This document shows, piece after piece, positions 5,293 to 31,928 of a DNA stretch of 45,049 bases (within the stretch, counting starts at the first letter, position 1; each line of letters opens with the position of its first letter). The notes under the pieces were generated by a model, which was given only the letters and a program-made list of their open reading frames with translations, searched no databases and had not been told where the DNA came from. Source of the stretch: an uncultured Bacilli bacterium (GTDB lineage: Bacteria > Bacillota_I > Bacilli_A > RF39 > UBA660); contig CALVXN010000004.1 in assembly GCA_944371315.1 (NCBI GenBank), forward strand, positions 1 through 45,049, written 5' to 3'. A program made the position numbers and the translations under genes.

Positions 5293-5320
5293 TTGACCAT
5301 ATCTTGCATATATTTAATTA
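5293..5320 (+). promoter_or_regulatory. Promoter-like or operator motif, copy 2, upstream of cotE
   Basis: TTGACC-N16-TAATTA. It also contains CATATATT (5307-5314), which resembles the sigma-E -10 consensus CATACAHT. Confidence 0.3.
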
Positions 5321-5334
5321 GGAAGGTGATTTAC

Positions 5335-5871
5335 GTGTCTAGTTATAAAGAAATAGTTACAAAAGCAGTGATTGGAAAAGCTAAAAAAACAAGTAGTAAT
5401 AAATTTTCTTTAACACCAGAAGAGCTACCAAATACTGTTTTAGGTTGCTGGGTGATTAATCATAAATTTAATGGTAGCAAGAATGCTAAGGGGAGTGTTT
5501 TAGTTAATGGATCATTTGATGTAAACGTTTGGTATTCTTATGACTCTGATAAAAAGACTGCTGTAACAACACAAAATTTTACTTATAGTGATGTTATGAA
5601 TGTTCCTCTTAAAGAAGATCATAATATGCAAGATGCATCAGAAATAATTGTTAGGTGTTTAAAACAACCAACAGTTTCTAATGTTCAAATAGATAATAAT
5701 ATCGTAAGTTTAGATGTTGCAAAAGAAATGGGTGTAGAAATTGTTGGAGATACTAAAGTGAAAGTTAGTGTAGAAGATGATGAAGATGACTACGAAGAAA
5801 TATTTGATGAACAAGAACTTGATGAAATTGAAGATGTAAATGAAAATTACTTAAATGAAGCATCTGAATGA
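5335..5871 (+). CDS. cotE: Spore coat morphogenetic protein CotE homologue
   Basis: From GTG 5335 (RBS GGAAGGTGA) the protein reads SSYKEIVTKAV...LGCWVINHKF...DVNVWYSY...IVGDTKVKV and ends in an acidic DE-rich tail. This matches my recollection of B. subtilis CotE (YREIITKAV, GGWIINHKY, INVWYSY, acidic C-terminus). Confidence 0.65.
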   Translation: MSSYKEIVTKAVIGKAKKTSSNKFSLTPEELPNTVLGCWVINHKFNGSKNAKGSVLVNGSFDVNVWYSYDSDKKTAVTTQNFTYSDVMNVPLKEDHNMQDASEIIVRCLKQPTVSNVQIDNNIVSLDVAKEMGVEIVGDTKVKVSVEDDEDDYEEIFDEQELDEIEDVNENYLNEASE

Positions 5872-5914: not shown

Positions 5915-5943
5915 TTGACATACTAAATTTAATATAGTAATAT
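5915..5943 (+). promoter_or_regulatory. Sigma-A promoter of rpsP-khpA
   Basis: TTGACA (5915-5920), 17-nt spacer, TAATAT (5938-5943). A GTCAAC-N8-GTTGAC inverted repeat overlaps the -35. Confidence 0.6.
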
Positions 5944-5968
5944 GTTTATAGGAAGTGAGGAGAGAAAA

Positions 5969-6247
5969 ATGGCTGTAAAGTTAAGATTAAAAAGAATGGG
6001 TGCTAAACAAAAACCTTTTTATCGTATAGTTGCTGCTGATTCAAGAAGTCCAAGAGATGGAAGATTTATTGAAACTGTTGGAACTTATAATCCAATTGCA
6101 AAACCAGCAGAAATAAAAATTAACAAAGAAGTTGCTTTAAAATGGTTAAATAATGGTGCACAACCAACAGATACAGTAAAAGCAATATTTAAAAACGAAG
6201 GTATAATGAAAGAATTTGCTGATTCAAAAGTAAAAAAAGGTAACTAA
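5969..6247 (+). CDS. rpsP: 30S ribosomal protein S16
   Basis: [35 protein letters not shown] is the canonical S16 N-terminus. GAGGAG RBS upstream. Confidence 0.95.
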
Positions 6248-6249
6248 AT

Positions 6250-6495
6250 ATGGATGTAGTAGAATATACAGAATTTTTAGTTAAAGAATTAGTAAAAGAT
6301 CCTGAATCTATTAAAGTAGAATGCTTTGAATCTGATGAAGATACAAAAATAATTGAAATAATAGTTTCTGAAAATGATATGAAAAATATCATAGGAAAAA
6401 ACGGAAAAAATGCATCAGCATTAAGAACAATAATTCAAGCCTTTGCTTATGTAAAAGGAATGAAAAAATTAAAAATTAACATCGATTCATATTAA
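6250..6495 (+). CDS. khpA: KH-domain RNA-binding protein (KhpA/YlqC, UPF0109)
   Basis: 81 aa with the GxxG KH motif IIGKNGKN. It sits in the conserved position immediately after rpsP. Confidence 0.85.
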   Translation: MDVVEYTEFLVKELVKDPESIKVECFESDEDTKIIEIIVSENDMKNIIGKNGKNASALRTIIQAFAYVKGMKKLKINIDSY

Positions 6496-6540: not shown

Positions 6541-6569
6541 TTTAAAAAGATTTCTTATTGTGTTAAAAT
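6541..6569 (+). promoter_or_regulatory. Extended -10 promoter for the repeat-protein/sigma operon
   Basis: TTTAAA (6541-6546), 17-nt spacer, TG-T-TAAAAT (6561-6569). Confidence 0.4.
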
Positions 6570-6604
6570 AATAACCATTGACTTATTATGAAAGGAATAT
6601 AAAA

Positions 6605-9600
6605 ATGGAACAAATATTTTGGGATAACTTCAAAAATACAGATAAATTATTAATTTTAGATTATGTAGGTAGACTGCCACTGATATACCAAAAAGCATTA
6701 CAAGATTGCTATGGTGAAGATTACAATGAATTATTAAAAAGGGGAGTTAAACTTACTGATGCCAAAAAAGCTATAAAAAAAATTAATTATTTAATTAACA
6801 ATCCTAATTATTATGTGCGTGCAACAAATTATAATCCAGCTAAAAATTTAAATGGAGAAATAAAGGTATTTAGTGGTAAACAAAAAAAAGTTTATTTAAA
6901 AGAAAAATTAAACTGTGATGAAAACACTATAAAAAGAATATCGATTATTTTCAGATTAAATCCAGAATTTAAAATTTTATATAAATATTTCGGTATAAAT
7001 TTAGACGAAAGTATTGACGAATTTGAATTATCAAGAGAAGATTATGAAACATTAAAAAAACTTTATAAGAATCTTAATGATTTTATAAGTAATAAATCAA
7101 TTTTAATAAGAAACATTTTAGGTTTAACATATAGTGAATTTGTATCTTATTTTGAAAAAGAATTAACGATAAATCCCAAGTTAAAAAAAATAAAACTGCT
7201 ATGTAAAAAGAACATAATTACTGAGCCTATAAACTTATTGGATATAGATGATAAAACATTTTTAAGTATAATTAAATGTATTTATTGTTTAAAACCAAAT
7301 ATATTAGTGAATCAAATACTTGCAAATAATAAATTTAATATTACATTACAAGAGTTCTTAGATGCAAATGAAAAAGAAATGGATTTTATATTAGAAAAAA
7401 ATAAAAATACTGATGTAGGTAACACTTTAAAAAATTTATGGCAAGACGATTACACAAAATTATGTATTGATAAAAATAATGATTCTATAAACGAATTAGT
7501 AACAATATTAAATGTTTTAATTAATGATTTATTTTCATATAGATATTTAATTAAAGTTAAAACATTACAAGAAATATTGGAAGCAACAGAAGAAGAAATA
7601 GATTTTTTAAAAAATAATTTATCAAAAGAAACATCTTCATATAAAATTATTTCAAAAGTATTTGGAAGTAACTTTAGAGGAACAAATGAGTTGAGATATA
7701 TGTTGCATGGCAAAGATAATGAAGCATATCATAATGCATTATTAAATTTGAAATTAAAACTAAGTAATTATAGAAATGGAAAATCTAGAAAATTTAAAAC
7801 ATTACAAGAATTATTAGGGGCATCAGAAGAAGAAATAGATTTTTTAAAAAAATATATTAATGATAATTATGAAAAATTTGCTATTATTATTAAAGTCTTT
7901 GGGAAAGAATTAAATGGGATAAATGAATTTTATAAATATTTAAGCGCCGAAGAAAAAGTAGCATATTCTGAAAAAATTCATATTTTAAGAATAAATTTAC
8001 AAAAGTTTAGAACAGGAAAATTACATGAATATAAAAAATTAAAAGATATATTAAATGTATCAGAAGAAGAAATAGAACACATAAAAAAATACTATCCTAA
8101 AACAACAAAAGGCTATCAAATTTTATTAAAAGTATTTGGAGAAAATTTGGATAATGATGACTCATTATATTGTAATTTATTAGAAAAAGAAAAAAATTTA
8201 TATCGATATACATTGCAAGCTTTAAATAGGTTTTTAAAAGATGGCATTAAAAAATATAAAACTTTACAAGAAATACTTGAAGCAACAGAAGAAGAAATGG
8301 AATTTTTAAAACAAAAATATCCTAAAAATACAAAAAATTATATTTTGCTTATAAAAGTATTTGGAAATAATTTTGAAAATTCAAATTATAATTATGACAA
8401 ACTAAATGGGGACGAAAAGAAAAAATACAGAAGTGCTTTAAAATCAATAAGGAAATTTTTAGAAAAACATAGAAAAAATTTAATAAAAAATGGTAAAACA
8501 TTAGCCGAAATAATAAAAATATCACCAGAAGAAATTGAATATATAAAACAACAATATCCTAAAAATACAAAAAACTATAAAATTATAGTTAAGGTATTTG
8601 GCATAGAATTAAAGGACACAAATGAAAAATTAAATTGTTTAACCAACGAAGAAAGAAAAACCTACTATAACGCTCTAAATTGCTTAAAAAGATTTATTAA
8701 AAGAAGTGAAACAAAGTGTAAACCTAAAACTTTACAAGAGTTATTAAAAGCAACAGAAAAAGAAATAGATTTTTTAAATAAAAAAATATCTAAAAAAACA
8801 AAGACTTATACTATATTATCAAAAGTATTTGGTAATGATTTTAAAAAAACAAATAAATGTTATGATAGTTTAACAACACTAGAAAAAAGAACTTTTTCAC
8901 AGACAATAATAAGATTAAAAAGCCTTTTAGAAAAATACAGAGAAACAAAGAAATTTGATTTTAAAACACTTTCCCAAATATTAGGCGCGACAAAAGAAGA
9001 AATAGAATTTTTGATGGATGAAGCAGATAAAAGTTCAAAAATTTACAAAGTGATTTTAAAAGTATTTGGAGAGGATTTTGAAGGAACTAACGAAAAGAAG
9101 TTTTTATTAAATAATGAAGAAAAAAAGACATATAATAATGCAATATCATCATTAAAAGCTAGATTAAAAAATTATAGGAAAAATAAAAATATTAAATATA
9201 AAACTTTACAAGAAATACTTGAAGCAACAGAAGAAGAAATAGACTTTTTAAGTGAAATTACTCCTAAAAAAACTAAAAATTATGTTGTTCTTGTTAAAGT
9301 TTTTGGAGAAAGTTTTAAAGGAACAAATGAACTATATGAACAACTAGCTGATGAAGAGAAGGTAACTTATTTTGCAGCAATAAAATCATTATCAGTAAGG
9401 CTAAAAAAATATCGTGACAATGGAAAAGATTATAAAACCTTGCAAGAAATACTAAATGCAACAGATGAAGAAATGAATTATTTAAGTAAAATTTACCCTC
9501 AAAATACAAGAAGTTATCAATTTTTGGTAAGTATGTTTGGAATAGATTTTAGAAATATAGGAAATTTGAGTAAATTATCTAGTGAAGCAAATATGTTGTT

Positions 9601-10012
9601 AAATGATACGATAGCAATATTACAAACATATTTATGTATGCAAAGAGAAAATACGAAAGATGGAAATTTACAACAAATCGAAACAGAAGGCCCTGTTGAA
9701 ATTTTAACAAGTAAAGAATATACAACGGTGGAAACACCATTTAAACATCCATTTTTTAAAGAATTTTTAATATTACTACCTATTGAATATCAATATATTA
9801 CAGCATTAAGATTAGGTTTAGTATATGATGGAAAAATTCATTCCATTGAAGAATTAGCGGAAATATTTAATATTGATATTGAAACTGCAAGAGAAAGATG
9901 TTCAAAAGGAATAAACATATTTATATTAATAATTGAAAGATATAAAGAATTGTATAATCAAAACGTCCCAAATATTGATGCACTAATAGAAAACATAAAA
10001 TTAGTTTTATAG
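6605..10012 (+). CDS. Giant repeat protein (1135 aa) with no sigma domain: FWDNF cap, about 12-13 copies of the ~78-aa helical repeat, and a C-terminal sigma4/YlxM-like HTH
   Basis: Uninterrupted ORF. ATG 6605 is preceded by a GAAAGGA RBS. The track TTG start at 6578 would lie at the predicted transcription start. Repeats and the C-terminal domain are paralogous to the ORFs at 10025 and 14406. Confidence 0.85.
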   Translation: MEQIFWDNFKNTDKLLILDYVGRLPLIYQKALQDCYGEDYNELLKRGVKLTDAKKAIKKINYLINNPNYYVRATNYNPAKNLNGEIKVFSGKQKKVYLKEKLNCDENTIKRISIIFRLNPEFKILYKYFGINLDESIDEFELSREDYETLKKLYKNLNDFISNKSILIRNILGLTYSEFVSYFEKELTINPKLKKIKLLCKKNIITEPINLLDIDDKTFLSIIKCIYCLKPNILVNQILANNKFNITLQEFLDANEKEMDFILEKNKNTDVGNTLKNLWQDDYTKLCIDKNNDSINELVTILNVLINDLFSYRYLIKVKTLQEILEATEEEIDFLKNNLSKETSSYKIISKVFGSNFRGTNELRYMLHGKDNEAYHNALLNLKLKLSNYRNGKSRKFKTLQELLGASEEEIDFLKKYINDNYEKFAIIIKVFGKELNGINEFYKYLSAEEKVAYSEKIHILRINLQKFRTGKLHEYKKLKDILNVSEEEIEHIKKYYPKTTKGYQILLKVFGENLDNDDSLYCNLLEKEKNLYRYTLQALNRFLKDGIKKYKTLQEILEATEEEMEFLKQKYPKNTKNYILLIKVFGNNFENSNYNYDKLNGDEKKKYRSALKSIRKFLEKHRKNLIKNGKTLAEIIKISPEEIEYIKQQYPKNTKNYKIIVKVFGIELKDTNEKLNCLTNEERKTYYNALNCLKRFIKRSETKCKPKTLQELLKATEKEIDFLNKKISKKTKTYTILSKVFGNDFKKTNKCYDSLTTLEKRTFSQTIIRLKSLLEKYRETKKFDFKTLSQILGATKEEIEFLMDEADKSSKIYKVILKVFGEDFEGTNEKKFLLNNEEKKTYNNAISSLKARLKNYRKNKNIKYKTLQEILEATEEEIDFLSEITPKKTKNYVVLVKVFGESFKGTNELYEQLADEEKVTYFAAIKSLSVRLKKYRDNGKDYKTLQEILNATDEEMNYLSKIYPQNTRSYQFLVSMFGIDFRNIGNLSKLSSEANMLLNDTIAILQTYLCMQRENTKDGNLQQIETEGPVEILTSKEYTTVETPFKHPFFKEFLILLPIEYQYITALRLGLVYDGKIHSIEELAEIFNIDIETARERCSKGINIFILIIERYKELYNQNVPNIDALIENIKLVL
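7559..9667 (+). repeat. Nine well-conserved in-frame tandem coding repeats (mean 78.1 aa, about 234 nt)
   Basis: Anchors [18 protein letters not shown]...YxILxKVFGxxFxGTN...LxxEEKxxYxxAIxxLKxxLKxYR recur at about 7559, 7796, 8036, 8259, 8497, 8727, 8966, 9201 and 9436. Three or four degenerate copies lie upstream (about 6890-7558). Confidence 0.9.
8252..8298 (+). repeat. 47-nt exact direct repeat (partner at 9194-9240)
   Basis: AAATATAAAACTTTACAAGAAATACTTGAAGCAACAGAAGAAGAAAT occurs twice, 942 nt (314 codons) apart and in frame. Confidence 0.9.
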
Positions 10013-10024
10013 AAAGGAGGATAA

Positions 10025-13000
10025 ATGAAAAATAGTATTTTATTATATCAGCTTATGCAAGAATATGGTTTTTATAATAAATCAAGTGAATTTTATATTG
10101 AAATTATAAAAAAATATGAAATAAATGGCGAAGTTAATAGACAAGACATAATAAAAATTAGAGAAAGTATATTAAAAAAAATAAAATGGGATATAAAAAA
10201 TTTAAATATTGATTGGCTGATAAATTTGTTCTTAAAAGTTAAAACATTAAGCGATTTATCAAAGCTATTAAATTTATTAAATAAATATACTATAGTTTTA
10301 GATTTTAGTTTAATTGAAAGTTTAATAAATAATAATTCGCAAGTTGATGCTTTAATATTTAGTTTTTTAAAAAAAGGAAAAAATATAACAATTTCATATA
10401 TAGATAGAATTAGTGATAATGAGTTAGTAACTGAACTTTTAATTGCCTATGCAACTATAAAAAATATCTTAATAAATGAATCAGAAAGAGAAGCAAACGA
10501 ATATTATGAAAATGCCCCCCAAAATTTTAAAATTGATGATTCAATAGGCATGTATTTAAAAGAAATAGGTAGTATACCATTATTATCAAAAGAAGAAGAA
10601 CTTGAATTGTTTAAAAAGATAGAAATGGGTAGTAAACAAGCAAAAGATAGAGTAATTGAAGCAAATTTACGTCTAGCAGCTTCTATTGCCAAAAAATATT
10701 TGAACAAAGGTTTAGGGCTACAAGACCTTATTCAAGAAGGAAATATAGGGATTATGAAGGCAGTAGAAAGGTTTGATTATAAGAAGGGATACAAATTTTC
10801 TACTTATGCTACCTGGTGGATTAGACAAACTATTACAAGGGCAATAAGTGAACAATCTAGACCCATTAGAGTGCCAGTTTATATGGATGAAAATATAAAA
10901 AATTTACATATAGCGAAAAATAATTTATCAATTAAGCTAAATAGAGAACCAACTATTGAGGAAATTGCCGAAGTATTAAATATGACACCAGATAAAGTAT
11001 TAGAAATAATTAGATTTGACACAGAAACATCAACAGCATCATTAAATGCTACAGTTGGTGATGAAGATGATTCAGAGCTAGGGAATTTCATTGAAGATAC
11101 TTTTTTTGAATCTCCAACAAAAACTTTTGAACAAAAAGATTTACGTATTAGGTTAAATGAGATAATTAATGAATTAGATGAAAGAGAAAAATCAGTTATA
11201 ATGTATAGATTTGGTTTAATAGATGGAAAACCTTATACACTTGAAGAAATAGGTAGAATATTAAATGTTACAAGGGAAAGAATTAGACAAATTGAAAAAA
11301 AAGCTTTAAGAAAATTAGGTAACCCTGTAAGAGCTAAAAAAATAGAAGATTATTATGAATCTAATGATATTGATTATACAATAGCAAAAGGATTTTGGAA
11401 TAATTTCATACATTATACAAAAGATATTATATTTTTAATAATTGATAATGATCTTAAAAAAGATTTAAAAAGCGCATTGTATAAAGTTTTTGGAAAAGAT
11501 TTATCAAAAGTAAAAATTAAAAATTCAAGTGAAACAGCAAAAGCAATTGAAGCAATAGAAGCAATTAAAACAATTTTAAAAACAAAAGATAAAAGCCAGT
11601 ATGAAATAACTTTACAAGAATATTTAAAAGCAACCGATGAAGAATATGAAAATTTAAAAAAGATTATTATATGTTCTTCTTACTGTGAAATATTATCAGA
11701 ATTATTTGGTAGTAATTTTGATCAACCAAAATCAGGTATAATAGCATCGCCAAGTAATGAGGCAACTTATTATAATATTGCATTTTGTTATTTAAAAAAT
11801 TGTTTAAATAAACGATGCGAAGTTCTACCTGAATTTAGATTAGGAACGCTACAGGAGATACTTAATGCAAACAAAGAAGAAATAAAATATTTAAAAGATA
11901 GCGTATTAAGTAAAACGGCTAACCGTTCTATAATAATAAAAGTTTTTGGAAATAACTTAGATCAAATAAATTCAGGTTATTATGAATTAGAATATAGTGA
12001 AAAAAATAAATATTTTAAATCTATTTCGTATTTAAAAAAAGAATTAACTAATTACAGAAAATTAAATTCAAGTAATAATATAACTTTGCAAGAAATACTA
12101 AATGCAACTGATGAAGAAATGTTATTTATAAAATGTAAAATTATAAATGATTCTTATTTTCAAATAATATTAAGAGTTTTTGGAAATGAATTAAACCAAA
12201 CAAATAAAAGCTTTAATGAATTAAGCGAAGAAGAAAAAATAGAATATAATAAATGTATAAGAAGTTTAAAAGACAAAATACGAGGATTTAGAGTATTTAA
12301 CAATAATAGAAGAAATTTGCAAAAGTATTTAAACGCATCTGATGAAGAAATGGTTTATTTAAATCAAACGTATATAGCTTCAGCAAAATTAAAAAATATT
12401 ATCTATGGAATATATGGTGAAAATTTAAACGAATTTAACGTTTATTTTTACGCTAGCTTATCTGATAAAGAGTTATTTAATTATAGTTCATTTATAACAA
12501 ATTTGCAAAAAAAATTAGAAAAACATCGCCATGAGCAAAAAGATTGTAAAACTATTCAAGAACTTTTAGAACTATCAAATGAAGAATTAGAATTAATTAG
12601 ACTTTATTATATAAATAAATCAGATAGATACCAAATATTAATAGAAGTATTCGGAGAAAATTTAGACCAAACAAATAAAATAGTTTGTTCATTTAATAAT
12701 CATAAAAATCAAACCTATAATAACGCTTTAAATGATTTAAGAAAAACAATAAAAATGCACAGGTTAATAGTAGGGGTTGGAAAAGCTATTTTTGAAATTT
12801 TAAATATGTCAATTGACGAATTTAATTTGATTAAACAAAACTTTTCACAAAATTTTGCAAATTTTAATGTTTTAATAAAAGTATTTGGGGATAATTTTGA
12901 TAAAACTGATGAAAACTATCATAATTTATCAATTGAAGAAAAAGTAGAATATATTAAAGCATTAGAAGAGTTTACTAAGTGTTTGATATCTGTTAGAACA

Positions 13001-13630
13001 TACAAAACTAAACATCAAACATTACAAGAAATACTGGAAGCTACAGAAGAAGAAATAGCATTTATAAAAGATAATTATCCACAAAATACAAAAAATTATG
13101 ATATTTTAGTCAAAGTCTTTGGCATAGATTTCACAAATAATAATTATATTTTAACTGAATTAAATGATTTTGAGAAAGATCAATATTACCGAGCAATAGA
13201 TTGTTTAAGAAAATATTTAAAAAATTATAGGAAAGGTAAAAATAAATTACCTAAAAAAGAAGAGTTAAAATTACCAAATGATACTACTAAAATAGATAAA
13301 CAAGATGACATAGAATATTTAGATGCAATACCTGATATAAATTTAAATGAAATTAAAACACCTTTTACGCATCCATATTTTCAAGAATTTATTAATATTT
13401 TACCAGAAGAGTATCGTATTATAACTGCTAAAAGAATGGGATTAAGTGATGGTTGCATCCATTCTTTAACAAGCCTAGCAAAAGAATTTAAAATAAGTCC
13501 ACAAGAGGTATATACCAAATGCGAAAATGGCATAGCATTATTTATATTAATAGTTAAAACTTACCAAACCACATTTAATAAAGAATTACCAATTTTAGAT
13601 TTAGATATGTTATTAAAACGTCTTATATAA
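10025..13630 (+). CDS. Primary-like (RpoD/SigA-type) sigma-70 factor fused to a novel N-terminal domain, 7 helical repeats and a C-terminal HTH (1201 aa)
   Basis: aa 171-444 (10535-11356) carry regions 1.2-4.2: [81 protein letters not shown] and [39 protein letters not shown] sits 12 nt after the stop of the upstream ORF. Confidence 0.9.
11606..13246 (+). repeat. Seven in-frame ~78-aa tandem coding repeats of the same family
   Basis: Anchors xTLQE[IY]Lx A[TS][DE]EE occur at about 11606, 11846, 12081, 12313, 12550, 12787 and 13018. A 23-nt exact match TTGCAAGAAATACTAAATGCAAC is shared with the 6605 ORF (about 9438 and about 12087). Confidence 0.85.
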
Positions 13631-13633
13631 AAA

Positions 13634-14332
13634 TTAAATATTTTTGTTTTTAATAAATTCAGTGAGCATTTTAGTAAGTGCTCTTTTTTCAATTCTAGAA
13701 ACATAACTTCTAGATATTTTTAACTCTTTTGCTATTTCTTTTTGCGTCATTTCCTTAGTGTTAAATAATCCATATCTTTTAACAATAATTTCTTTTTCAC
13801 GATCATTTAAAAGTTTTAGATATTTATTTAATAAATTAATATTGTTTTTAATTTCAAGTTGATCAAATAAATCTTTATCCTTATCTTTTATTACATCTAT
13901 TAAACTTATTTCATTTCCATCTTTATCATAACCAATAGCATCATTTAAACTAACAGTAACATTAACATGTTTATTAGCTCTAAAATGCATTAATAATTCA
14001 TTTTGAATACATCTAGCAGCATAAGTAGTAATTTTTGTTTTTTTATCATTATTATATGTATCAATTCCTTTAATAAGACCAATAGTTCCAATACTTATTA
14101 AATCATCAGTATCAACATCTTTGGTATCAAACTTTTTAACTATATGTGCAACCAAACGTAAATTATGCTCAATAAGTTTATTGCGAGCATTTTTATCTCC
14201 ATTTAACATGTCATTTATACATTTTTCTTCTTCTATAGCATTAAGTGGTTCAGGAAAAACATTATTAGAATAACTTCCTGTAAAAAACAACATATCTTTA
14301 ATAATATTTAACAAATTAAATAACATAAACAC
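13634..14332 (-). CDS. sigK: Sporulation sigma factor K precursor (pro-sigma-K), uninterrupted
   Basis: LIEHNLRLVAHIVKKF, DLISIGTIGLIKGI, TYAARCIQNELLMH, VSLNDAIGYDKDGNEISLIDV and ISRSYVSRIEKRAL match B. subtilis SigK rather than SigE. The hydrophobic N-terminal pro-sequence ends ...FFTGS / YSNNVFPEPL. AGGGGTG RBS upstream. Confidence 0.9.
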   Translation of the reverse strand: MFMLFNLLNIIKDMLFFTGSYSNNVFPEPLNAIEEEKCINDMLNGDKNARNKLIEHNLRLVAHIVKKFDTKDVDTDDLISIGTIGLIKGIDTYNNDKKTKITTYAARCIQNELLMHFRANKHVNVTVSLNDAIGYDKDGNEISLIDVIKDKDKDLFDQLEIKNNINLLNKYLKLLNDREKEIIVKRYGLFNTKEMTQKEIAKELKISRSYVSRIEKRALTKMLTEFIKNKNI

Positions 14333-14350
14333 CCCTATACTTTATTTTAT

Positions 14351-14378
14351 TTGCAATTTTTAAATAATATGTTAAAAT
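14351..14378 (+). promoter_or_regulatory. Extended -10 sigma-A-type promoter for the 775-aa sigma-repeat gene
   Basis: TTGCAA (14351-14356), 16-nt spacer ending in TGT, TAAAAT (14373-14378). It lies in the 73-nt divergent region shared with sigK. Confidence 0.5.
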
Positions 14379-14405
14379 ATATAACTATTACTGGGGGAAT
14401 TAATA

Positions 14406-16733
14406 ATGGATATAAGTGTGATTGTAGAAAAATTAAGTGAAGAATTTTCTTTTTACAATAAACCATACGAATATTATTTTAAGATATGTAATGAAATATT
14501 ATGTGATGATGCAAATTTAATGTATAAATTTTGTTATGAAAAAGTAGTTTTAGATATAAAAAACGATTGGAAAAGTTTAAAAATTGGTTGGTTTATTGCA
14601 ATATTTAAAGAAAATTTAAATGGAATGTTAGAAATATTAACTAAATTTGGATTAGTGATAGATAATACTAATTTTAAGCAAATTATAAAAAAATATCCTG
14701 ATTTTGAAAATACTTTATGTGATTTAGTAGAAAACGATGCTTATTTAGATGAAAATGAAACATTAAAAAAACTAATTAAATTATACTTAAGTTATACAGA
14801 AAGCAAAATGAAAAATAAACAAGATAAGGATATATTATTGTGGGAAGAACAGTTAGAAATATTTAAGATTTTAAAAGAATTAAGTAAAGAACCAGAAAAA
14901 AATAAAACTTCCATAGCTTATTATTATGATTTACTAGTAGAGCAATATAAAAATTTTGTTCGATCCCTAATACCAAAATATGAACAAGAAAAAGTAGAAT
15001 ATGATGATTTAGTTCAAGAAGGATTCATTGGATTAATTAATGCAATTAGAAATTTTGATTATACAAAGAGTTATAAATTTTCATCATATGCTTATGTTGT
15101 TATAAAAAACGCTATTAGGAAATACATAAATAAAAACATTAGATCAATAAGAATTCCTGATTCAATGTTAAACGATTATTTTAGAATAATATATACTCAA
15201 AGAGATTATTATATGTTAAATGGAAAAGAAGCAAGCGAAGAAAAACTATCAGAAATGTTATGTATGTCAATAGAAAAAATTAGAAATGTTTTAATGTGCT
15301 GTGAAGATACAATATCATTATATGATTCTTTAGGTAGGGGACCAGAAGAAGCAGAATACACTTTATTGTGTGCAATAAAAAATGAATCGTCCCCATTACC
15401 AGATGAAATATATGAAAGAAAACAAATAAATTTGATGATAGAAGAATTGTTTAGTGTTTTAACGGACATTCAAAGAAAAGTAATTGAACAATATTTTGGA
15501 TTTTATAATCAAAAACCTAAATCAATTCAAAATATAGCAGATGAACTTGGTTGTTCCAGAGAAAATATAGATCAAATAAGAAGTAATGCATTAAAACGAA
15601 TGAGAAAACACTTAGCTGATAAAAAGGATAATGATTTAAATACCTTTAGTAAATTTTCGTTAAATACAAATTATTTTTGGTATAACTTTATAGGTTTTAA
15701 AAAGTCTGAAGTATTAGAAGCTATAAACGAACTTGTAAATGAAGAAAATTTAAGTTATTTAGAACAAAAATCCTTAATAGATAGATTTGGTAAAAAATAT
15801 AATTTATTAAATAAAGTAGATGAAGAAACAATAAAAGTTGTTAGTGTTGCTATAGAAAAGATAAAAGAAAAACTTCTTGAAATACGAAAACGACAATCAA
15901 TGTTAAAAACCAAGATTGAAATAGGCAGTTTAATGGATATTTTAGATGCAACGATTGATGAAATAAAATATCTTAGATCAACTAGAAAAAAAGATAGTAA
16001 AAGCATAAATTTACTTACTAGATTATTTAATGATGATTTTTTAAGAGAAGGATTAATACCAGTTTATTTAAGTAAAACTGAATTAAGAACATATTATTCT
16101 GCTATAAGTGCATTAAGAGAATCATTAAAACTTTATAGAAAAAAAGAAAAAAATAAAAAGTATTACTTTGGCTTAACACTAAAACAAATATTAAATATAA
16201 CGGGTGAAGAAATTGAATTTTTAAAAAGGACGATTAATCCTAAATCTGCTTATTATTCAGTATTAACTAAATGCTTTGGAACTTCATTAGAAGAAGAAAA
16301 TAAAAATGAAAAATTAGATGAAAAAGAATTAAAATTATTAAAAAATGCTATAAACACAATGGAAGTGCTAATTTTTTATTATAGAGAGGAAGAAACTAAA
16401 AGACTATTAAAAATCTATAGCTATTTTAACATACCTGAAGAAACTAATGAAAAAGTAGTTACTCCATTTAGTAATCCAATGTTTAAATTATTTATTCAAT
16501 GTTTGCCTGATGAGCTACAAACTGTAACAGCGATGAGAATTGGGGCAGATAACGGTATTATTAAATCAATATTTGAAATTGCAATGTATTTAAATGAAGA
16601 TGAGGAAGAAGTAGCAAGAAAATGCAAAATAGGAATAGATTTATTTAAAACATTAGTAAGTGAATATAAAAATGAGTATGATAATGATTTTGAAGATTAT
16701 TTAATAGAAAGTAGAAAAAAATACGGTAAATAA
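14406..16733 (+). CDS. Divergent sigma-70 family factor fused to the same N-terminal domain, about 2 helical repeats and the C-terminal HTH (775 aa)
   Basis: Region 2: DLVQEGFIGLINAIRNFDYTKSYKFSSYAYVVIKNAIRKY. Region 4: LTDIQRKVIEQYFGF...SIQNIADELGCSRENIDQIRSNALKRMRKHL. These are followed by FWYNF (tgg at 15678), the repeats, then TPFSNPMF...LPDE...TAMRIG. GGGGGA RBS upstream. Confidence 0.85.
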   Translation: MDISVIVEKLSEEFSFYNKPYEYYFKICNEILCDDANLMYKFCYEKVVLDIKNDWKSLKIGWFIAIFKENLNGMLEILTKFGLVIDNTNFKQIIKKYPDFENTLCDLVENDAYLDENETLKKLIKLYLSYTESKMKNKQDKDILLWEEQLEIFKILKELSKEPEKNKTSIAYYYDLLVEQYKNFVRSLIPKYEQEKVEYDDLVQEGFIGLINAIRNFDYTKSYKFSSYAYVVIKNAIRKYINKNIRSIRIPDSMLNDYFRIIYTQRDYYMLNGKEASEEKLSEMLCMSIEKIRNVLMCCEDTISLYDSLGRGPEEAEYTLLCAIKNESSPLPDEIYERKQINLMIEELFSVLTDIQRKVIEQYFGFYNQKPKSIQNIADELGCSRENIDQIRSNALKRMRKHLADKKDNDLNTFSKFSLNTNYFWYNFIGFKKSEVLEAINELVNEENLSYLEQKSLIDRFGKKYNLLNKVDEETIKVVSVAIEKIKEKLLEIRKRQSMLKTKIEIGSLMDILDATIDEIKYLRSTRKKDSKSINLLTRLFNDDFLREGLIPVYLSKTELRTYYSAISALRESLKLYRKKEKNKKYYFGLTLKQILNITGEEIEFLKRTINPKSAYYSVLTKCFGTSLEEENKNEKLDEKELKLLKNAINTMEVLIFYYREEETKRLLKIYSYFNIPEETNEKVVTPFSNPMFKLFIQCLPDELQTVTAMRIGADNGIIKSIFEIAMYLNEDEEEVARKCKIGIDLFKTLVSEYKNEYDNDFEDYLIESRKKYGK
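15927..16400 (+). repeat. Two in-frame copies of the ~78-aa helical repeat
   Basis: SLMDILDATIDEIKYL...LTRLFNDDF...YYSAISALRESLKLYRK and LTLKQILNITGEEIEFLK...LTKCFGTSL...LKNAINTMEVL. Confidence 0.7.
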
Positions 16734-16834
16734 CATTAATTATGATATACTATTAAAGAATGGAGAAGAAAAATATGGTAAATAACATTAATTATGATAT
16801 ACTATTAAAGAATGGAGAAGAAAAATATGGTAAA
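16725..16834 (+). repeat. Perfect 52-nt tandem duplication (2.1 copies) spanning the stop of the 775-aa ORF and the RBS/start of polA
   Basis: 16725-16776 and 16777-16828 are identical (GGTAAATAACATTAATTATGATATACTATTAAAGAATGGAGAAGAAAAATAT). A third copy starts at 16829 (GGTAAA). Each copy carries TGATATACT (extended -10) and GGAG. Confidence 0.95.
16795..16803 (+). promoter_or_regulatory. Extended -10 element (TG-A-TATACT) proximal to polA, duplicated at 16743-16751
   Basis: TGATATACT at 16795-16803, with GGAG at 16813-16816 and ATG at 16827. Confidence 0.4.
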
Positions 16835-19379
16835 AAAACTGATTTTAATAGATGGAAATAATTTAATGTTTAGAAGTTATTATGCAACTGCATATAGTGG
16901 GAATATGATGAAAAACTCAAAAGGCATGCCAACCAATGCCTTGTTTGGTTTTGTATCAATGGTTAATAAAATTATCAATGAAGAAAATCCCAAGTATATT
17001 GCAGTTGCTTTTGACATTGGGAAAAACTTTCGTAAAGAACAATATGATTTTTATAAAGAAGGAAGACAACAAACACCTGATGAATTAAAAGCTCAAATGC
17101 CAATAGCTAGAAAAATTCTTGATGCTATGAATATTAAACATTTTGAATTAGAACCATATGAAGCGGATGATATAATTGGAACTATAGTAAAAATGACTGA
17201 AGAAGATAAAGATTTTGCAAGTGTAATCGTATCTAGTGATAAAGATTTACTTCAATTAATAAGTGAAGAAACAGAAGTAAAATTATTAAAACAAACAGGA
17301 TTTATAAGATATGACTATAAAACATTTGTAGATGATTATAAAATTGAACCAATTAGAATAATTGATTTAAAAGCATTAATGGGTGATAGTTCTGATAATA
17401 TTCCTGGCGTTAAAGGGATTGGCGAAAAAACAGCATTAAAATTGCTTCAAGAATATAAATCATTAGAAAACTTATATGATAATGTTGAAAGTATAACCGG
17501 TAAAACAAAAGAAAAATTGATAAATGATAAAGAAAATGCATTTATGAGTAAAAAGATTGCTACAATTTATAGAGATGTTCCATTAAATATTGATTTAGAA
17601 GATTTAAAGTTTGACTTAAAAGATGATACAAAATTAAAAGAAGTATATAATGAATTAGAATTTTATTCGTTATTAAAATCTACAAATGTAAAAAAAGAAG
17701 AAGTAAAAATAGAATATAAAGAAATAACTTCAATAAGTGAACTAAATTTAAATGAAAAAATAGCAATTTATTTAGAGCTAGATAATGAAAATTACCATAT
17801 AGCTAATCAAGTATGTTTAACTATTACTGATGGAAAAAATAACTATTATGTAAAAAAAGATTTAATTAAAGACGTATTAGATATAATTAAAGATAGAAAA
17901 ATAATAACTTATGATGCTAAAAAGATAATAGGTAATACGAAAATTTATATAAATTCAAGTTTTGATGTATCTATTGCTAGTTATATTTTAAACTATAATG
18001 TTAAAGATGATTTAGCATTTTTAGCTAATCAAATGGATTATCAAATTGAATTTTGGGATGTTTCAAAGAAAAATAATTTTGCAAATAAAGAAGAAGCAAT
18101 TAAAAAGTGTTTATTTTTATATAATATAAAAGAAAAATTAGAAAATAAATTAATTGAAGAAAATCAAATAGATTTATTTAAAAATATTGAAATGCCATTA
18201 ATTAATGTGTTAGCTGACATGGAAATAACAGGCATTAAAGTTGATGAAAATGAATTAAAGAAAATGGGTGAAGAATTTACTGTTAAATTAGAACTATTAG
18301 AAAAAGAAATATATAATTTAGCAGGAATAGAATTTAATATTAATAGTCCTAAACAATTAGGTGAAATACTATTTGACAAATTACAATTAGCTAAGGGCAA
18401 GAAAAATAAAACTGGTTATAAAACAGATGTTAAAGTTTTAGAAAAACTTGCTGAAAACTACCCAATAGCTAAAAAGATTCTTGAATATAGAGGACTTGCA
18501 AAATTAAAAAACACCTATATTGATGGCTTAAAAAATTGCATTTTAAACGATGGTAAAATACACACTATATATAAACAAACTTTAACTAGAACTGGAAGAT
18601 TATCATCAACTGAACCTAATTTACAAAATATACCAGTTAGAGACGAATTAGGAAGAAAAATAAGAAAAGCATTTGTCCCTTCAAATGACTTGCTGCTTAG
18701 TGCTGATTATTCACAAATAGAACTTAGAATTCTTGCACACATATCTAAATGTCCTAAGTTAATTCAATCTTTTATTGATGGATTAGATATTCACACAAAA
18801 GTTGCAAGTGATATTTATGGTATAAATAAAGAAGAAGTTACAAAAACAATGAGAAGAACTGCAAAGGCTGTAATATTTGGTATTGTATATGGAATTAGTG
18901 GCTTTGGTTTAGGAGAAAATCTACATATATCTAGAAAAGATGCTGAAAGTTTTATAAATAAATATTTTGAAATTTATCCTGAGGTAAAAAAATATACAGA
19001 AGATATAGTTAAATATGCTCATGAAAATGGTTATGTTAAAACTTTATTTAATAGAAAAAGAATATTAGATGAAATCAATAATCCTAATTATATGATAAAA
19101 AGTATGGGAGAAAGAATGGCAATGAATACCCCAATTCAGGGAACTAGTGCAGACATAATGAAAATGGCTATGATTAATGTCCATCATAGATTTAAAAAAG
19201 ATAACATTGAAAGTAAAATTTTATTACAAGTCCATGATGAAATAATAGTTGATGTAAAATTAAATGAATTAGAACAAGTTAAAAAAATAATAAAAGAAGA
19301 AATGGAAAATGTTTATAAATTAGATGTCCCATTAAAAGTAGAAATTGATACTGGAACAAACTGGTATGAAGCAAAATAA
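16827..19379 (+). CDS. polA: DNA polymerase I
   Basis: 5'-nuclease N-terminus LILIDGNNLMFRSYYA, polymerase motif A LLSADYSQIELRILAH, motif B RRTAKAVIFGIVYG, motif C LQVHDEII. ATG 16827 is preferred over 16812 because of GGAG spacing. Confidence 0.95.
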   Translation: MVKKLILIDGNNLMFRSYYATAYSGNMMKNSKGMPTNALFGFVSMVNKIINEENPKYIAVAFDIGKNFRKEQYDFYKEGRQQTPDELKAQMPIARKILDAMNIKHFELEPYEADDIIGTIVKMTEEDKDFASVIVSSDKDLLQLISEETEVKLLKQTGFIRYDYKTFVDDYKIEPIRIIDLKALMGDSSDNIPGVKGIGEKTALKLLQEYKSLENLYDNVESITGKTKEKLINDKENAFMSKKIATIYRDVPLNIDLEDLKFDLKDDTKLKEVYNELEFYSLLKSTNVKKEEVKIEYKEITSISELNLNEKIAIYLELDNENYHIANQVCLTITDGKNNYYVKKDLIKDVLDIIKDRKIITYDAKKIIGNTKIYINSSFDVSIASYILNYNVKDDLAFLANQMDYQIEFWDVSKKNNFANKEEAIKKCLFLYNIKEKLENKLIEENQIDLFKNIEMPLINVLADMEITGIKVDENELKKMGEEFTVKLELLEKEIYNLAGIEFNINSPKQLGEILFDKLQLAKGKKNKTGYKTDVKVLEKLAENYPIAKKILEYRGLAKLKNTYIDGLKNCILNDGKIHTIYKQTLTRTGRLSSTEPNLQNIPVRDELGRKIRKAFVPSNDLLLSADYSQIELRILAHISKCPKLIQSFIDGLDIHTKVASDIYGINKEEVTKTMRRTAKAVIFGIVYGISGFGLGENLHISRKDAESFINKYFEIYPEVKKYTEDIVKYAHENGYVKTLFNRKRILDEINNPNYMIKSMGERMAMNTPIQGTSADIMKMAMINVHHRFKKDNIESKILLQVHDEIIVDVKLNELEQVKKIIKEEMENVYKLDVPLKVEIDTGTNWYEAK

Positions 19380-19394
19380 AAAGTAGGTGATTAA

Positions 19395-20225
19395 ATGCCG
19401 GAAATAGCAGAAGTTGAAACTGTTAGAAATACTTTAAAAAGAATGATTTTAAATAAAAAAATTAAAGAGGTAAATATAATTTATTCTAAAATGATAGAAA
19501 GCGATATAGATGATTTTAAAAATATATTGCCAGGAAAAACAATAATGGATATAAAAAGGATTGGAAAATGGTTAATATTTGATTTAGGAAAATATTATTT
19601 GCTTAGTCATTTGAGGATGGAAGGTAAATACTTTGTGAAAAAACATGATGAAGAGATTAATAAACATGAGCATGTAATTATCACATTTACTGATAATACA
19701 GATTTAAGGTATCATGATACAAGAAAATTTGGAAGAATGAATTTAATAAAAAAAGAAGATTTATATAAGGTAGAAGCAATAAAAAAACAAGGACTTGAAC
19801 CAACTGATAAAAATTTAACTGCAAATTATTTATATGAAAAAATTCATAAAAAAAATTTGCCTATTAAAACAATTTTACTAGATCAAACTATAATTTCGGG
19901 TTTAGGTAACATATATGCTGATGAAGTTTTATTTTCATCTAAAATAAATCCATTAAAAAAAGGAAAAGATATTACTCTAAATGAGTGCGAAAATATAAAG
20001 GTGAGTTCTAAAAAAGTTATTGAAGAAGCTATAAAGTGTGGTGGCACAACTATAAGAAGTTATACCTCATCACTGGGAGTTACAGGAAGATTTCAACAAT
20101 ACTTAAATGTTCATAAAAAAGAAGGGGAAAAATGCAAAAATTGTGGAAATATAATAAAAAAAATTAAAGTTGGTGGAAGAAGCACTTATTATTGTCCCAA
20201 TTGTCAAAAAGAAGATATGGAGTAA
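19395..20225 (+). CDS. mutM: Formamidopyrimidine-DNA glycosylase
   Basis: MPEIAEVETV N-terminus (catalytic Pro2/Glu3), H2TH region, and C-terminal zinc finger CKNCG...YYCPNCQ. Confidence 0.9.
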   Translation: MPEIAEVETVRNTLKRMILNKKIKEVNIIYSKMIESDIDDFKNILPGKTIMDIKRIGKWLIFDLGKYYLLSHLRMEGKYFVKKHDEEINKHEHVIITFTDNTDLRYHDTRKFGRMNLIKKEDLYKVEAIKKQGLEPTDKNLTANYLYEKIHKKNLPIKTILLDQTIISGLGNIYADEVLFSSKINPLKKGKDITLNECENIKVSSKKVIEEAIKCGGTTIRSYTSSLGVTGRFQQYLNVHKKEGEKCKNCGNIIKKIKVGGRSTYYCPNCQKEDME

Positions 20226-25116: not shown

Positions 25117-25150
25117 AAAGCAATTAGATTAATTTTTAATTGCTTTTTTG
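25117..25150. terminator. Bidirectional terminator between convergent genes
   Basis: AAAGCAATTA (25117-25126) pairs with TAATTGCTTT (25137-25146). It is flanked by A and T runs. Confidence 0.55.
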
Positions 25151-31873: not shown

Positions 31874-31928
31874 ATTTACTTTCATGTATAACGTTTGTTA
31901 TAATATTAAACAATGTGGGGGAATATAT

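Follow-up and report, generated by a model that had tools for sequence, protein, structure and literature searches.

What may a long repetitive tail behind a sigma-70 domain serve for, and why should two genes encoding such fusions, together with a third one that encodes the tail alone, be gathered around the sporulation gene sigK of an uncultured Bacilli bacterium? Sigma factors of groups 1–3 are believed to extend only a little beyond region 4.2. The earlier note on this DNA, made from the letters of the window (the whole analysed stretch of 45,049 nt), considered the genes as one functional system modulating RNA polymerase and possibly linked to sporulation.

Three intact genes around sigK

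Genes A (6605–10012, 1135 aa), B (10025–13630, 1201 aa) and C (14406–16733, 775 aa), all on the forward strand, are intact open reading frames with one C-terminal module in common, which supports their earlier description as paralogues with a modular C-terminal architecture. The order of the module is the same in all of them: a divergent first unit opening with FWxNF (its FW codons lie at 6620, 11396 and 15678, as was reported), five-helix units of ~78 aa, an acidic linker and finally a conserved end domain, designated below as sigma4'. In B the module comprises eight units and follows an N-terminal domain and sigma regions 1.2–4.2; in C three units stand behind an N-terminal domain and a divergent sigma-70 domain. 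A is the module alone and lacks sigma regions 1.2–3. Its start is likely the ATG at 6605, which has an AAAGGA ribosome-binding site and on which gene callers agree in three other assemblies. A and B are separated by 12 nt, each gene having its own ribosome-binding site, strong in the case of B (AAAGGAGG). A 232-aa ORF on the reverse strand, sigK (13634–14332, probable start ATG at 14326), has its stop codon 3 nt from that of B, and the arrangement noticed earlier, with A and B convergent on sigK and C divergent from it, was confirmed.

The same three intact genes recur in four independent assemblies (the window, L001, L002 and L006), and the longest near-identical stretch between repeat copies is ~47 nt. 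For these two reasons mis-assembly of the repeat genes is unlikely. The source, short-read metagenome assemblies, and the existence of truncated-looking relatives, such as sigma ORFs of 280, 521 and 551 aa in L003 and L011, might still suggest mis-assembled repeats or decaying pseudogenes. However, besides the recurrence of the ORFs, the repeat copies are only 60–75% identical at the DNA level (period 225–237 nt, identity far above chance), dN/dS is below 1 in every part and the AlphaFold2 models are confident, so that an artefact, against which the earlier note had cautioned, is extremely improbable. Between strains dN/dS amounts to 0.28 for B, 0.28 for C and 0.29–0.54 for A, and all three genes are under purifying selection.

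An Rfam scan of the window found no RNA family. Neither hydrophobic or membrane segments nor a localisation signal were found in the proteins (maximal hydropathy 1.34), and membrane association was rejected because there are no hydrophobic segments. Mobile-element or phage origin was rejected as well, since chromosomal synteny rpsP...polA is conserved. The full-length form, represented by B and C, is a cytoplasmic sigma-70-type factor of four parts: an N-terminal domain of ~150 aa specific to the family, standing where region 1.1 would be; regions 1.2, 2, 3 and 4, the last of which retains the residues reading the −35 element; a chain of three to more than ten units; and the acidic linker with sigma4'.

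Sigma domains of B and C

Pfam registered Sigma70 regions 1.2, 2, 3 and 4 in B (aa 172–431; E 3e-11 to 2e-21) and regions 2, 3 and 4 in C (aa 177–401), while its scan of A gave no sigma-70 region and left this protein with only the sigma4-like end domain. The two fusions to complete sigma-70 domains announced earlier were thereby confirmed. In B the complete domain of RpoD/SigA type, with regions 1.2, 2, 3 and 4, occupies aa 172–445 (10538–11359, forward strand), and in C divergent regions 2, 3 and 4, which are 28–33% identical to RpoDs, occupy aa 177–410 (14934–15635, forward strand). Neither protein is an ECF factor, which has sigma2 and sigma4 only, since region 3 is present in both and B possesses region 1.2 in addition. 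Region 1.1 (PF03979) gave no Pfam match in B or C.

In B its place is taken by a family-specific N-terminal domain (aa 1–165; 10025–10519, forward strand), which is 30% identical to the N-terminus of C (E 5e-8) and is present in about 20 family members. It has no match in Pfam, and hhalign connected it neither with the unit nor with the sigma or end domains, due to which its interpretation as a degenerate unit or a sigma part was rejected.

Is B then the housekeeping sigma of its lineage, with the tail and the paralogues as tolerated decoration having no dedicated regulatory role? Its sigma part gives 308 bits with B. subtilis SigA (7ckq_F) and is aligned up to the last residue of SigA; it is 52–55% identical to canonical RpoDs of other Firmicutes and keeps the motifs reading the −10 and −35 elements, TRERIRQIE among them. 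In the tree it lies closest to canonical RpoDs, there is no other group-1 sigma gene within the 45-kb window, and a composition screen found no obviously AT-biased canonical SigA among the top 120 database relatives of B. One candidate for the lineage's canonical SigA, P0120, was rejected: it lies on a contig with 29% GC and has an internal duplication of regions 2–3, and therefore says nothing on this genome; the composition screen was uninformative in this respect too.

Apart from P0120, these observations argue for a primary function, and B could serve as primary sigma in a lineage that evolves fast. On the other side, B scores 363.6 bits against the NCBIfam RpoD model NF006666, below its cut-off of 572, and 311.9 bits against RpoD_Cterm, below 354. 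Its sigma part evolves fast (omega 0.16, dN 0.015 versus 0.005 for polA and 0 for sigK); the fusion gene closest to B at the corresponding locus of a genome with PolA 76% and SigK 83% identical shares only 52% identity with it, and branches of the family are long compared with those of canonical RpoDs. Moreover, purifying selection acts on the tail, about 60 clusters share its conserved end domain, a separate tail-only gene is maintained, and the rpsP...sigK...polA locus of related genomes carries from one to three such genes, the sigma domain of some being just 38% identical to that of B. A housekeeping sigma with a merely decorative tail is thus improbable. Taking together the missing region 1.1, the RpoD score below cut-off, the fast evolution and the long branches, we tentatively infer that B does not serve as the housekeeping sigma. 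The designation “SigA-like” given to B earlier remains true of its sequence, but the gene evolves too fast to be taken as the housekeeping one.

The 78-aa unit and its arrays

With the unit HMM we counted nine strong copies in A (aa 319–1021; E 1e-31 to 1e-36 each), seven in B (aa 528–1075) and two in C (aa 507–667), in agreement with the numbers proposed before. Tandem Repeats Finder reported no 230-nt array in the region because the copies are too diverged, and protein HMMs were needed. The FWxNF segment, initially considered as a capping unit, is indeed present in all three proteins; according to the family-wide HMM, however, it is not a separate cap but a divergent first unit. Thus, the array of B (aa 457–1075; 11393–13249, forward strand) consists of the FWNNF first unit and seven canonical ones, and that of C (aa 424–667; 15675–16406, forward strand) of the FWYNF first unit and two canonical ones. 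In A the FWDNF first unit is followed by about three degenerate units (aa 1–318; 6605–7558, forward strand), foreseen in the earlier reading and detected by the family unit HMM as weak matches at aa 28–55, 97–164 and 247–303; this part is 95% identical between strains. Nine canonical units of 75–79 aa come next (aa 319–1021; 7559–9667, forward strand), units 1–8 of which (aa 319–943) are hypervariable between strains: dS is 0.59 and amino-acid identity 56%, versus dS of 0.06–0.08 in the flanks. The array of A has, therefore, conserved ends and a middle that varies freely.

The expectation that the unit is all-helical was borne out by AlphaFold2, which predicted five helices per unit for two consecutive units of A (aa 787–943; pLDDT 92.5; 15-row alignment with the unit pairs of B included). 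Units and sigma4' are confidently predicted, while the acidic linker, which in B has a net charge of −5 (aa 1076–1110; 13250–13354, forward strand), is predicted to be disordered, with pLDDT below 50 at model residues 165–185. The geometry between units is of low confidence (pTM 0.41–0.53). Conserved residues within the unit belong mostly to the hydrophobic core, and surfaces are variable.

As supposed, the unit is not a named domain: it has no significant match in Pfam, NCBIfam, PHROG, PDB or BFVD, and when the two-unit model was compared with PDB and BFVD by Foldseek, no match reached E ≤ 1e-3 (best E ~1). A faint summed match to phrog_23229 (E 4e-5) was registered, in which no single stretch is significant. 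The first two helices of the unit are weakly HTH-like (hhalign versus the end domain: E 1.8e-4, Prob 49%), and its weak profile matches coincide with HTH segments in sigma region 3.1 and in the end domain. The idea that the units are copies of region 4 was rejected as unproven, with hhalign E 0.48 against region 4 and at best 0.016 against the whole sigma domain.

A second region 4 at the end of the tail

The terminal domain is conserved in all three proteins, as was claimed, and can now be defined more precisely. It occupies aa 1043–1135 of A together with the TPFKHPFFKEF motif (9731–10009), aa 1111–1201 of B (13355–13627) and aa 685–775 of C (16458–16730), all on the forward strand, and it is a second sigma region 4. 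Comparison with region 4 by hhalign gave Prob 97.6% and E 2.9e-12 over 59 columns; Pfam recognised Sigma70_r4_2 in four and Sigma70_r4 in two of 30 end domains; and for a model of two units, linker and end domain the top 50 Foldseek matches are all sigma-A/sigma-70 chains (best E 3e-3, prob 0.96).

Residues contacting the −35 element were tested in the recognition helix at positions of E. coli R584, E585, R586, R588 and Q589. In 61 end domains the columns of R584 and R586 are acidic in 57–66% and basic in 3–8% of cases, and the R588 column is basic in 26%. By comparison, the genuine region 4 keeps Arg or Lys at the R584 and R586 columns in about 90% of 54 sigma-bearing proteins (the fusions of the family and B, C and SigK of the window). 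Judging by these residues, sigma4', which has lost the DNA-contact arginines, in B as elsewhere, and mostly has Glu or Asp instead, is predicted to be “DNA-blind”.

This bears on the assumption that units or sigma4' contact DNA upstream of the −35 element, in the manner of UP-element recognition or TALE proteins, and extend promoter specificity in a genome with 23% GC, while A acts as a nucleoid- or promoter-binding competitor. The HTH-like pair opening the unit, with its matches to HTH parts of region 3.1 and of the end domain, would suit such a role, as would the net charge of the A array (+32, pI 9.3) and the hypervariability of its central units, expected of an array determining specificity. 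However, the would-be recognition helix is acidic both in the unit (consensus TEEEIDFLK) and in sigma4', the array of B is neutral (+2), the unit model matches no DNA-binding fold, and variation extends over the whole unit rather than being confined to a few positions. We therefore hold DNA reading by the array to be quite unlikely.

Family and genomic neighbourhood

Word-indexed homology searches are nearly blind to this family: A retrieved three matches and a profile of 70 units only one. It was found only by exhaustive HMMER, which collected 103 protein clusters among 1.8 billion, about half of them full sigma fusions; genome contigs were scanned with an 8-sequence alignment. Cluster look-up gave no name for any member. 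All genomes identified for the family belong to uncultured low-GC Bacilli from gut-type samples, and A, B and C are members of a rare family restricted to this lineage of uncultured, low-GC, spore-forming Bacilli. The number of units ranges in it from one to more than ten. In L010 a repeat-only gene lies between two fusion genes. The literature searched does not describe this class of sigma fusions and mentions C-terminal extensions only for ECF sigma factors, which agrees with the earlier statement that it is not a described class.

The 232-aa ORF is a genuine sigK by the SigK model NF004471 (313.8 bits, cut-off 252); TIGR02846 gave 298.5 bits versus its cut-off of 298.65. The tie of the repeat to sigK surroundings, suggested before, holds for one clade, where family genes adjoin sigK, but it is not general: the family is limited neither to this locus nor to sigK surroundings, in other clades its genes are near spoIIA/spoVA or SASP genes, and neighbouring genes differ between clades.

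Transcription signals were considered with caution, as a generic promoter scan gave 86 matches versus 94 expected from shuffled sequence, that is no excess. Only two sites are cited here, having the extended −10 element in both cases and cross-genome conservation in the case of C. A promoter-like site before A (6541–6569, forward strand) combines TTTAAA, a 17-nt spacer and TGtTAAAAT and is of sigma-A type, by consensus match only. An AT-rich hairpin with a T-run was seen just 3' of a KH-domain gene that ends at 6495. The site for C (14351–14378, forward strand) has TTGCAA, a 16-nt spacer and TGtTAAAAT, and it is conserved in L003, L008, L009 and L010, 5' of the fusion gene that diverges from sigK. 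The promoter of this fusion gene looks like a vegetative one of sigma-A type with extended −10. A terminator-like hairpin with a T-run for the A–B transcript (13664–13683, forward strand), also known by consensus match only, falls inside the 3' coding end of sigK. The proposed link to sporulation could not be upheld, since adjacency to sigK is conserved in one clade only, the promoter of the fusion gene looks vegetative, and synteny is all that speaks for it. That A, B and C form one functional system is plausible from the 12-nt distance between A and B and the common module.

The same data concern the possibility that the chain with sigma4' is a tether or scaffold, which recruits or localises RNA polymerase and may bind some partner protein, another polymerase or a cellular structure, possibly one related to sporulation, but does not regulate the sigma domain; A would then compete for the scaffold or extend it. 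The long, confidently helical chain with geometry between units of low confidence, the variable surfaces over conserved cores, the wide range of unit numbers and the proximity to sigK in one clade and to spoIIA/spoVA or SASP genes in others are consistent with this. Nevertheless, the analysis revealed neither a partner domain nor a membrane segment or localisation signal, neighbour genes vary between clades, and the conserved promoter 5' of the fusion gene is of sigma-A type, not a recognisable mother-cell promoter, so that we regard scaffolding as somewhat unlikely.

A decoy copy of region 4 as a possible regulator

The reading that we tentatively put forward as a possible one is that B and C function as alternative sigma factors, distinct from the housekeeping one, whose tail is a self-contained regulatory module. 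The chain of repeats would serve as a long spacer presenting the DNA-blind mimic of region 4, and this mimic may compete for the dock of the real region 4, be it the beta-flap tip on the core enzyme or a regulator binding region 4. In this way the tail of B and C would control in cis how the holoenzyme forms or which promoters it uses, and the free-standing A may do the same in trans, like an anti-sigma or decoy whose gene adjoins that of its sigma. The conserved hydrophobic core of the units and the array of A with its conserved ends and variable middle fit the role of a spacer. The tail is modular indeed: A runs precisely from the first unit to sigma4', that is, the third and fourth parts of the full-length form exist as a separate protein, and the 12-nt gap suggests that A is expressed from the same operon as B. 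Binding of sigma4' to the beta flap, to region 4 or to another target is only proposed here. Against the decoy stands the strongly basic array of A (net charge +32), which would also suit nucleic-acid binding.

One can go further and suppose a new type of sigma control, in which a DNA-blind copy of region 4 on a repeat arm, together with a sigma-less paralogue acting in trans, occupies the beta flap, or a partner binding region 4, either on its own RNA polymerase or on a further one. Competition of sigma factors or coupling of polymerases would then be achieved by paralogous mimicry, with no classical anti-sigma, and the hypervariable array of A would tune it between strains. We consider this extended version unlikely, though worth formulating.

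Comparison with known systems

Tandem all-helical units with conserved cores, variable surfaces and changing copy number are familiar from TPR, HEAT/ARM, PPR and TALE proteins, but the unit described here matches none of them in sequence or structure and is longer (78 aa, five helices). MzaA of the MZA anti-phage system is likewise a large member of the sigma-70 family that carries an additional part of non-sigma nature, and its models match B with 194 bits (PADLOC) and 303 bits (NCBIfam). Yet the match covers the sigma domain only, which is C-terminal in the MzaA models (positions 427–670 of 683 in the PADLOC profile), and misses the NCBIfam cut-off of 800; no other Mza component was matched in three neighbouring ORFs scanned. 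The anti-phage reading was rejected because PADLOC matches only the sigma part of MzaA.

It is well known that Rsd, T4 AsiA and anti-sigma factors act on or through sigma region 4 and that region 1.1 is autoinhibitory. The proposed tail resembles them in controlling sigma via docking of region 4 or via an intramolecular domain. To our knowledge none of Rsd, AsiA and anti-sigma factors is a homologue of region 4, and we know of no description of a tethered or free-standing copy of this region.

A group-1 sigma is encoded by a single gene of its genome, in Firmicutes typically in the dnaG–sigA operon, and evolves very slowly, its orthologues hardly differing between close relatives. B resembles RpoD/SigA (B. 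subtilis SigA, chain F of 7ckq) in regions 1.2–4, in the TRERIRQIE motif and in the alignment reaching the last residue of SigA. In contrast to it, B has an unrelated 150-aa domain instead of region 1.1 and a 755-aa tail after region 4.2, stays below the NCBIfam equivalog cut-off, evolves fast, does not stand beside dnaG and has several paralogues at its locus. E. coli RpoD tolerates C-terminal run-on poorly, a 49-residue run-on lowering fitness (PMC8716302); such tails, therefore, matter, but this does not tell how.

Extensions of ECF factors are SnoaL-like, TPR or zinc-binding domains of roughly 100–200 aa. ECF (group 4) factors with such extensions are similar to B and C as sigma factors with a fused C-terminal domain. 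In ECF41, ECF42 and related proteins this domain is thought to be a built-in regulator replacing or adding to the anti-sigma (PMC4598750, PMC8999054, PMC7826278). ECF proteins have sigma2 and sigma4 only, whereas here regions from 1.2 to 4 are followed by a 350–750-aa tail of a new repeat that ends in a duplicated region 4. C-terminal regulatory extensions were hitherto a hallmark of ECF factors only. At this locus a coherent family of RpoD-like proteins is met with, to which the lineage has added a novel N-terminal domain, a 78-aa repeat of a new kind and a second copy of region 4 devoid of DNA contacts, as well as a tail-only gene. An uncharacterised domain family gains hereby its first structural and genomic description. 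If the tail really is a region-4 decoy or tether, it would represent a new principle of sigma regulation and offer a module, compact and amenable to tests, with which RNA polymerase might be put under synthetic control.

Gene layout and expression signals

Four genes lie between rpsP/KH (5942-6495) and polA/fpg (16812-20225): A (6605-10012, plus strand, 1135 aa), B (10025-13630, plus, 1201 aa), sigK (13634-14332, minus) and C (14406-16733, plus, 775 aa), and all coordinates of the earlier note proved correct when the window was re-examined. A, B and C are paralogues sharing a C-terminal module, which follows a sigma domain in B and C and makes up the whole of A. The window (~23% GC) comes from a spore-former, because CotE (5293-5871), a GerA-type germinant receptor operon (25129-28665, minus) and SigK are encoded in it. 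At the 3' end of the locus a 52-bp tandem repeat (16701-16834; 2.6 copies, 93% identical) duplicates the region of the polA ribosome-binding site and start codon, and its first copy provides the final codons (..KYGK) and stop of C. Overlapping blastn segments in strain L001 suggest another copy number there. A Fic-domain protein (22559-23716; 88 bits to the PADLOC SoFic model) has homologues at the equivalent position 3' of fpg in the related loci L003 and L007. BspA-type leucine-rich repeats, typical of host-associated bacteria, are present in a 605-aa protein (31884-33701), which fits a gut origin.

Promoter, ribosome-binding and terminator signals were assigned by consensus matches only. 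Upstream of A there are a putative promoter TTTAAA-N17-TGtTAAAAT (6541-6569, plus) and a good ribosome-binding site. The gap between A and B is 12 nt and B has a strong ribosome-binding site of its own, which suggests that both genes form an operon. Stop codons of B (plus) and sigK (minus) are 3 nt apart (region 13628-13683), and the sole terminator-like hairpin for the A-B transcript (13664-13683) is situated within the sigK coding sequence; convergent A-B and sigK transcripts are therefore predicted to overlap in antisense. Upstream of C there is TTGCAA-N16-TGtTAAAAT (14351-14378) with an extended -10, and a promoter of this type is kept ahead of the sigK-divergent fusion gene in four further genomes (L003, ~5440-5470; L008, ~6770-6800; L009, ~7477-7506; L010, ~1404-1433). 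The form conserved in the five loci has TTGxAA in all but L003 (TTTAAA), a spacer of N15-16 and TGtTAnAAT. The site resembles a vegetative promoter of sigma-A type, or one read by B, but not a mother-cell promoter. Since the divergent region between sigK and the fusion gene is ~75 bp, the conserved promoter leaves little space for a separate sigK promoter.

Repeat unit and end domain

The HMM of the ~78-aa helical unit built from A found nine copies in A, seven in B and two in C, those of A having E ~1e-31 to 1e-36 each, thus reproducing the earlier counts of clear units. With a family-wide HMM, the family being proteins that carry units and the end domain, further degenerate units were registered in aa 1-318 of A. 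The FWxNF motif described in the earlier note is present, while the separate cap assigned to it turned out to be a divergent first unit. At the DNA level the repeats have a period of 225-237 nt, with 60-75% identity between copies. Two consecutive units modelled by AlphaFold2, with paralogous units as alignment, gave pLDDT 92.5 and five helices per unit, the last of ~25 residues. No significant match to the unit was found in Pfam, NCBIfam, PHROGs, PDB sequences, PDB structures or BFVD, in agreement with the initial impression that it is no named domain. Protein A faintly matched phrog_23229, a phage family of unknown function with 91 positions (aa 943-968, window 9431-9508; summed E 4e-5, no single stretch significant), a hint at the possible existence of single units as small phage proteins.

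The end domain has the fold of a sigma region 4. In the second AlphaFold2 model (B aa 920-1201, 22 family sequences, pLDDT 82) two units are followed by a linker that is disordered (model residues 165-185) and by a compact end domain of four helices, and the top 50 Foldseek matches of this model were sigma-A or sigma-70 chains only (best E 3e-3, prob 0.96). Alignment by hhalign of 61 end domains with genuine region 4 of 54 sigma-bearing proteins (family fusions and B, C and SigK of the window) gave Prob 97.6% and E 2.9e-12 over 59 columns. In it the pattern LPxEYRxITxLRLGLYDGxIHSxxEIAxIFNISEEEV is aligned to region-4 [41 protein letters not shown]. Searched singly, 6 of 30 end domains matched Sigma70_r4_2 or Sigma70_r4. 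At the columns matching E. coli R584 and R586, 57-66% of end domains have acidic and 3-8% basic residues; in the family's real region 4 the same columns keep Arg or Lys in ~90%. The end domain is therefore called sigma4', a region-4 fold without -35 contacts.

Helices 1-2 of the unit show weak alignment to the HTH of sigma4' (E 1.8e-4, Prob 49%) and of sigma region 3.1 (E 0.016). The tail might be considered a DNA-reading array, but its "recognition" helices are acidic and the array of B is neutral, so that this explanation is improbable.

Sigma parts of B and C

Pfam and NCBIfam registered Sigma70 r1.2, r2, r3 and r4 in B (aa 172-431), r2, r3 and r4 in C (aa 177-401) and no domain in A; these matches are, as anticipated, confined to the central parts of the two fusions. 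An N-terminal domain of ~150 aa is common to B and C (30% identity, E 5e-8) and occurs in ~20 family members; it showed no relation to the unit, sigma domain or sigma4'. No membrane segment was found in A, B or C.

In B, aa 154-445 can be aligned with residues 84-371 of B. subtilis SigA, up to its last residue (308 bits); the 2.3/2.4 and 4.2 motifs are retained, and identity to canonical RpoDs of other Firmicutes is 52-55%. The sigma part of C is far more diverged (28-33%). B could be taken for a housekeeping sigma with a tolerated tail, but it is unlike a standard primary sigma, because region 1.1 is absent (Pfam), scores are below the RpoD equivalog cut-offs (NCBIfam), identity to P0007, the fusion gene most similar to B at the corresponding locus of another genome, is 52% (PolA 76%, SigK 83%, RpsP 85%), dN between two strains is 0.015 for the sigma part (polA 0.005, sigK 0), and in a distance tree family sigma domains form long branches round a tight canonical RpoD cluster, B and P0007 being nearest to it. 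The housekeeping role is improbable, and B probably acts as an alternative sigma whose promoter specificity is near-canonical. The best canonical match to B, P0120 (L015 3851-5176, 29% GC contig), is a dnaG-linked SigA of 441 aa, in which regions 2.3-3.0 are duplicated internally, possibly through an assembly artefact; on the genome of the window it is uninformative.

Strain comparison

The window and L001 represent two strains of one species with 94-98% nucleotide identity. B and C each have dS 0.08 and dN/dS 0.28, and the flanks of A dS 0.06-0.08 and dN/dS 0.29-0.31 (95-96% aa identity). Central units of A (aa 319-943; window 7559-9433, L001 1715-3556) are hypervariable, with dS 0.59, dN 0.32, dN/dS 0.54 and 56% aa identity; the first units, last unit and sigma4' are 93-99% identical. 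L001 has ten canonical units in A versus nine in the window, including a recent four-unit amplification, and the middle of this array is turned over by recombination or duplication. Every part of A, B and C is under purifying selection and they are, therefore, functional genes; an artefact is extremely improbable.

Family distribution and neighbourhoods

An exhaustive HMMER search of 1.84 billion cluster representatives with a profile of two units and sigma4' yielded 103 family clusters at E <= 1e-3, of which 67 reach E <= 1e-10. According to local HMMs, ~55 of the 103 have a full sigma domain N-terminal to units and sigma4' and ~30 are repeat-only; cluster look-up gave no name from any source. 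The profile scan of GTDB species genomes found seven loci: CASFPB01 (the window's own species), five "uncultured Bacilli bacterium" MAGs and Candidatus Onthocola stercoravium, recorded as Bacilli incertae sedis. GC of family loci is 23-30%, and all organisms bearing them are uncultured.

In the window's clade the frame rpsP-KH ... sigK (minus) ... polA-fpg is conserved, with one family gene (L008, L009), two (L003, L007) or three (L010, L011, window); unrelated ORFs fill the position of A in L003 and L008. sigK is divergent from the fusion gene in all loci of the frame that include it (window, L003/L007, L008, L009, L010). Outside the clade family genes adjoin YolD and a Y-family polymerase gene, near spoIIAA-sigF-spoVA or SASP genes. 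The link to sigK proposed in the earlier note therefore holds as clade-level synteny and is no rule of the family.

In another clade (L013 3454-11729, L016 8301-13300) family genes, encoding a 1626-aa fusion with an extra HTH_ParB match and a 1099-aa repeat-only protein, directly follow a divergent YolD and Y-family DNA polymerase pair, and in L016 spoIIAA-sigF-spoVAC/D/E is just upstream. Short sigma-like ORFs of 280, 521, 551 and 526 aa adjoin full-length fusion genes (L003 8930-9772; L011 2842-6102; L013 10149-11729). They comprise a sigma domain with at most a few units, lack the end domain, and may be truncated or decaying paralogues.

Possible role and comparison with known systems

The tail is modular, is encoded separately by A, and ends in a homologue of region 4 that has lost DNA-contact residues. 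Tentatively, it may be a regulatory module, whose long spacer would present a region-4 mimic competing for the beta-flap or a region-4 partner, in cis in B and C and in trans in A. The same tail as a localisation or partner scaffold is a rather doubtful assumption. Regarding known systems, B and C belong to the sigma-70-family proteins, and the match to MzaA is restricted to the sigma domain. In the literature examined C-terminal extensions are described for ECF sigma factors only, and a C-terminal run-on of E. coli RpoD is reported to be tolerated poorly (PMC8716302). The combination of an RpoD-like core, new N-terminal domain, new repeat, duplicated DNA-blind region 4 and free-standing tail paralogue appears to be undescribed.
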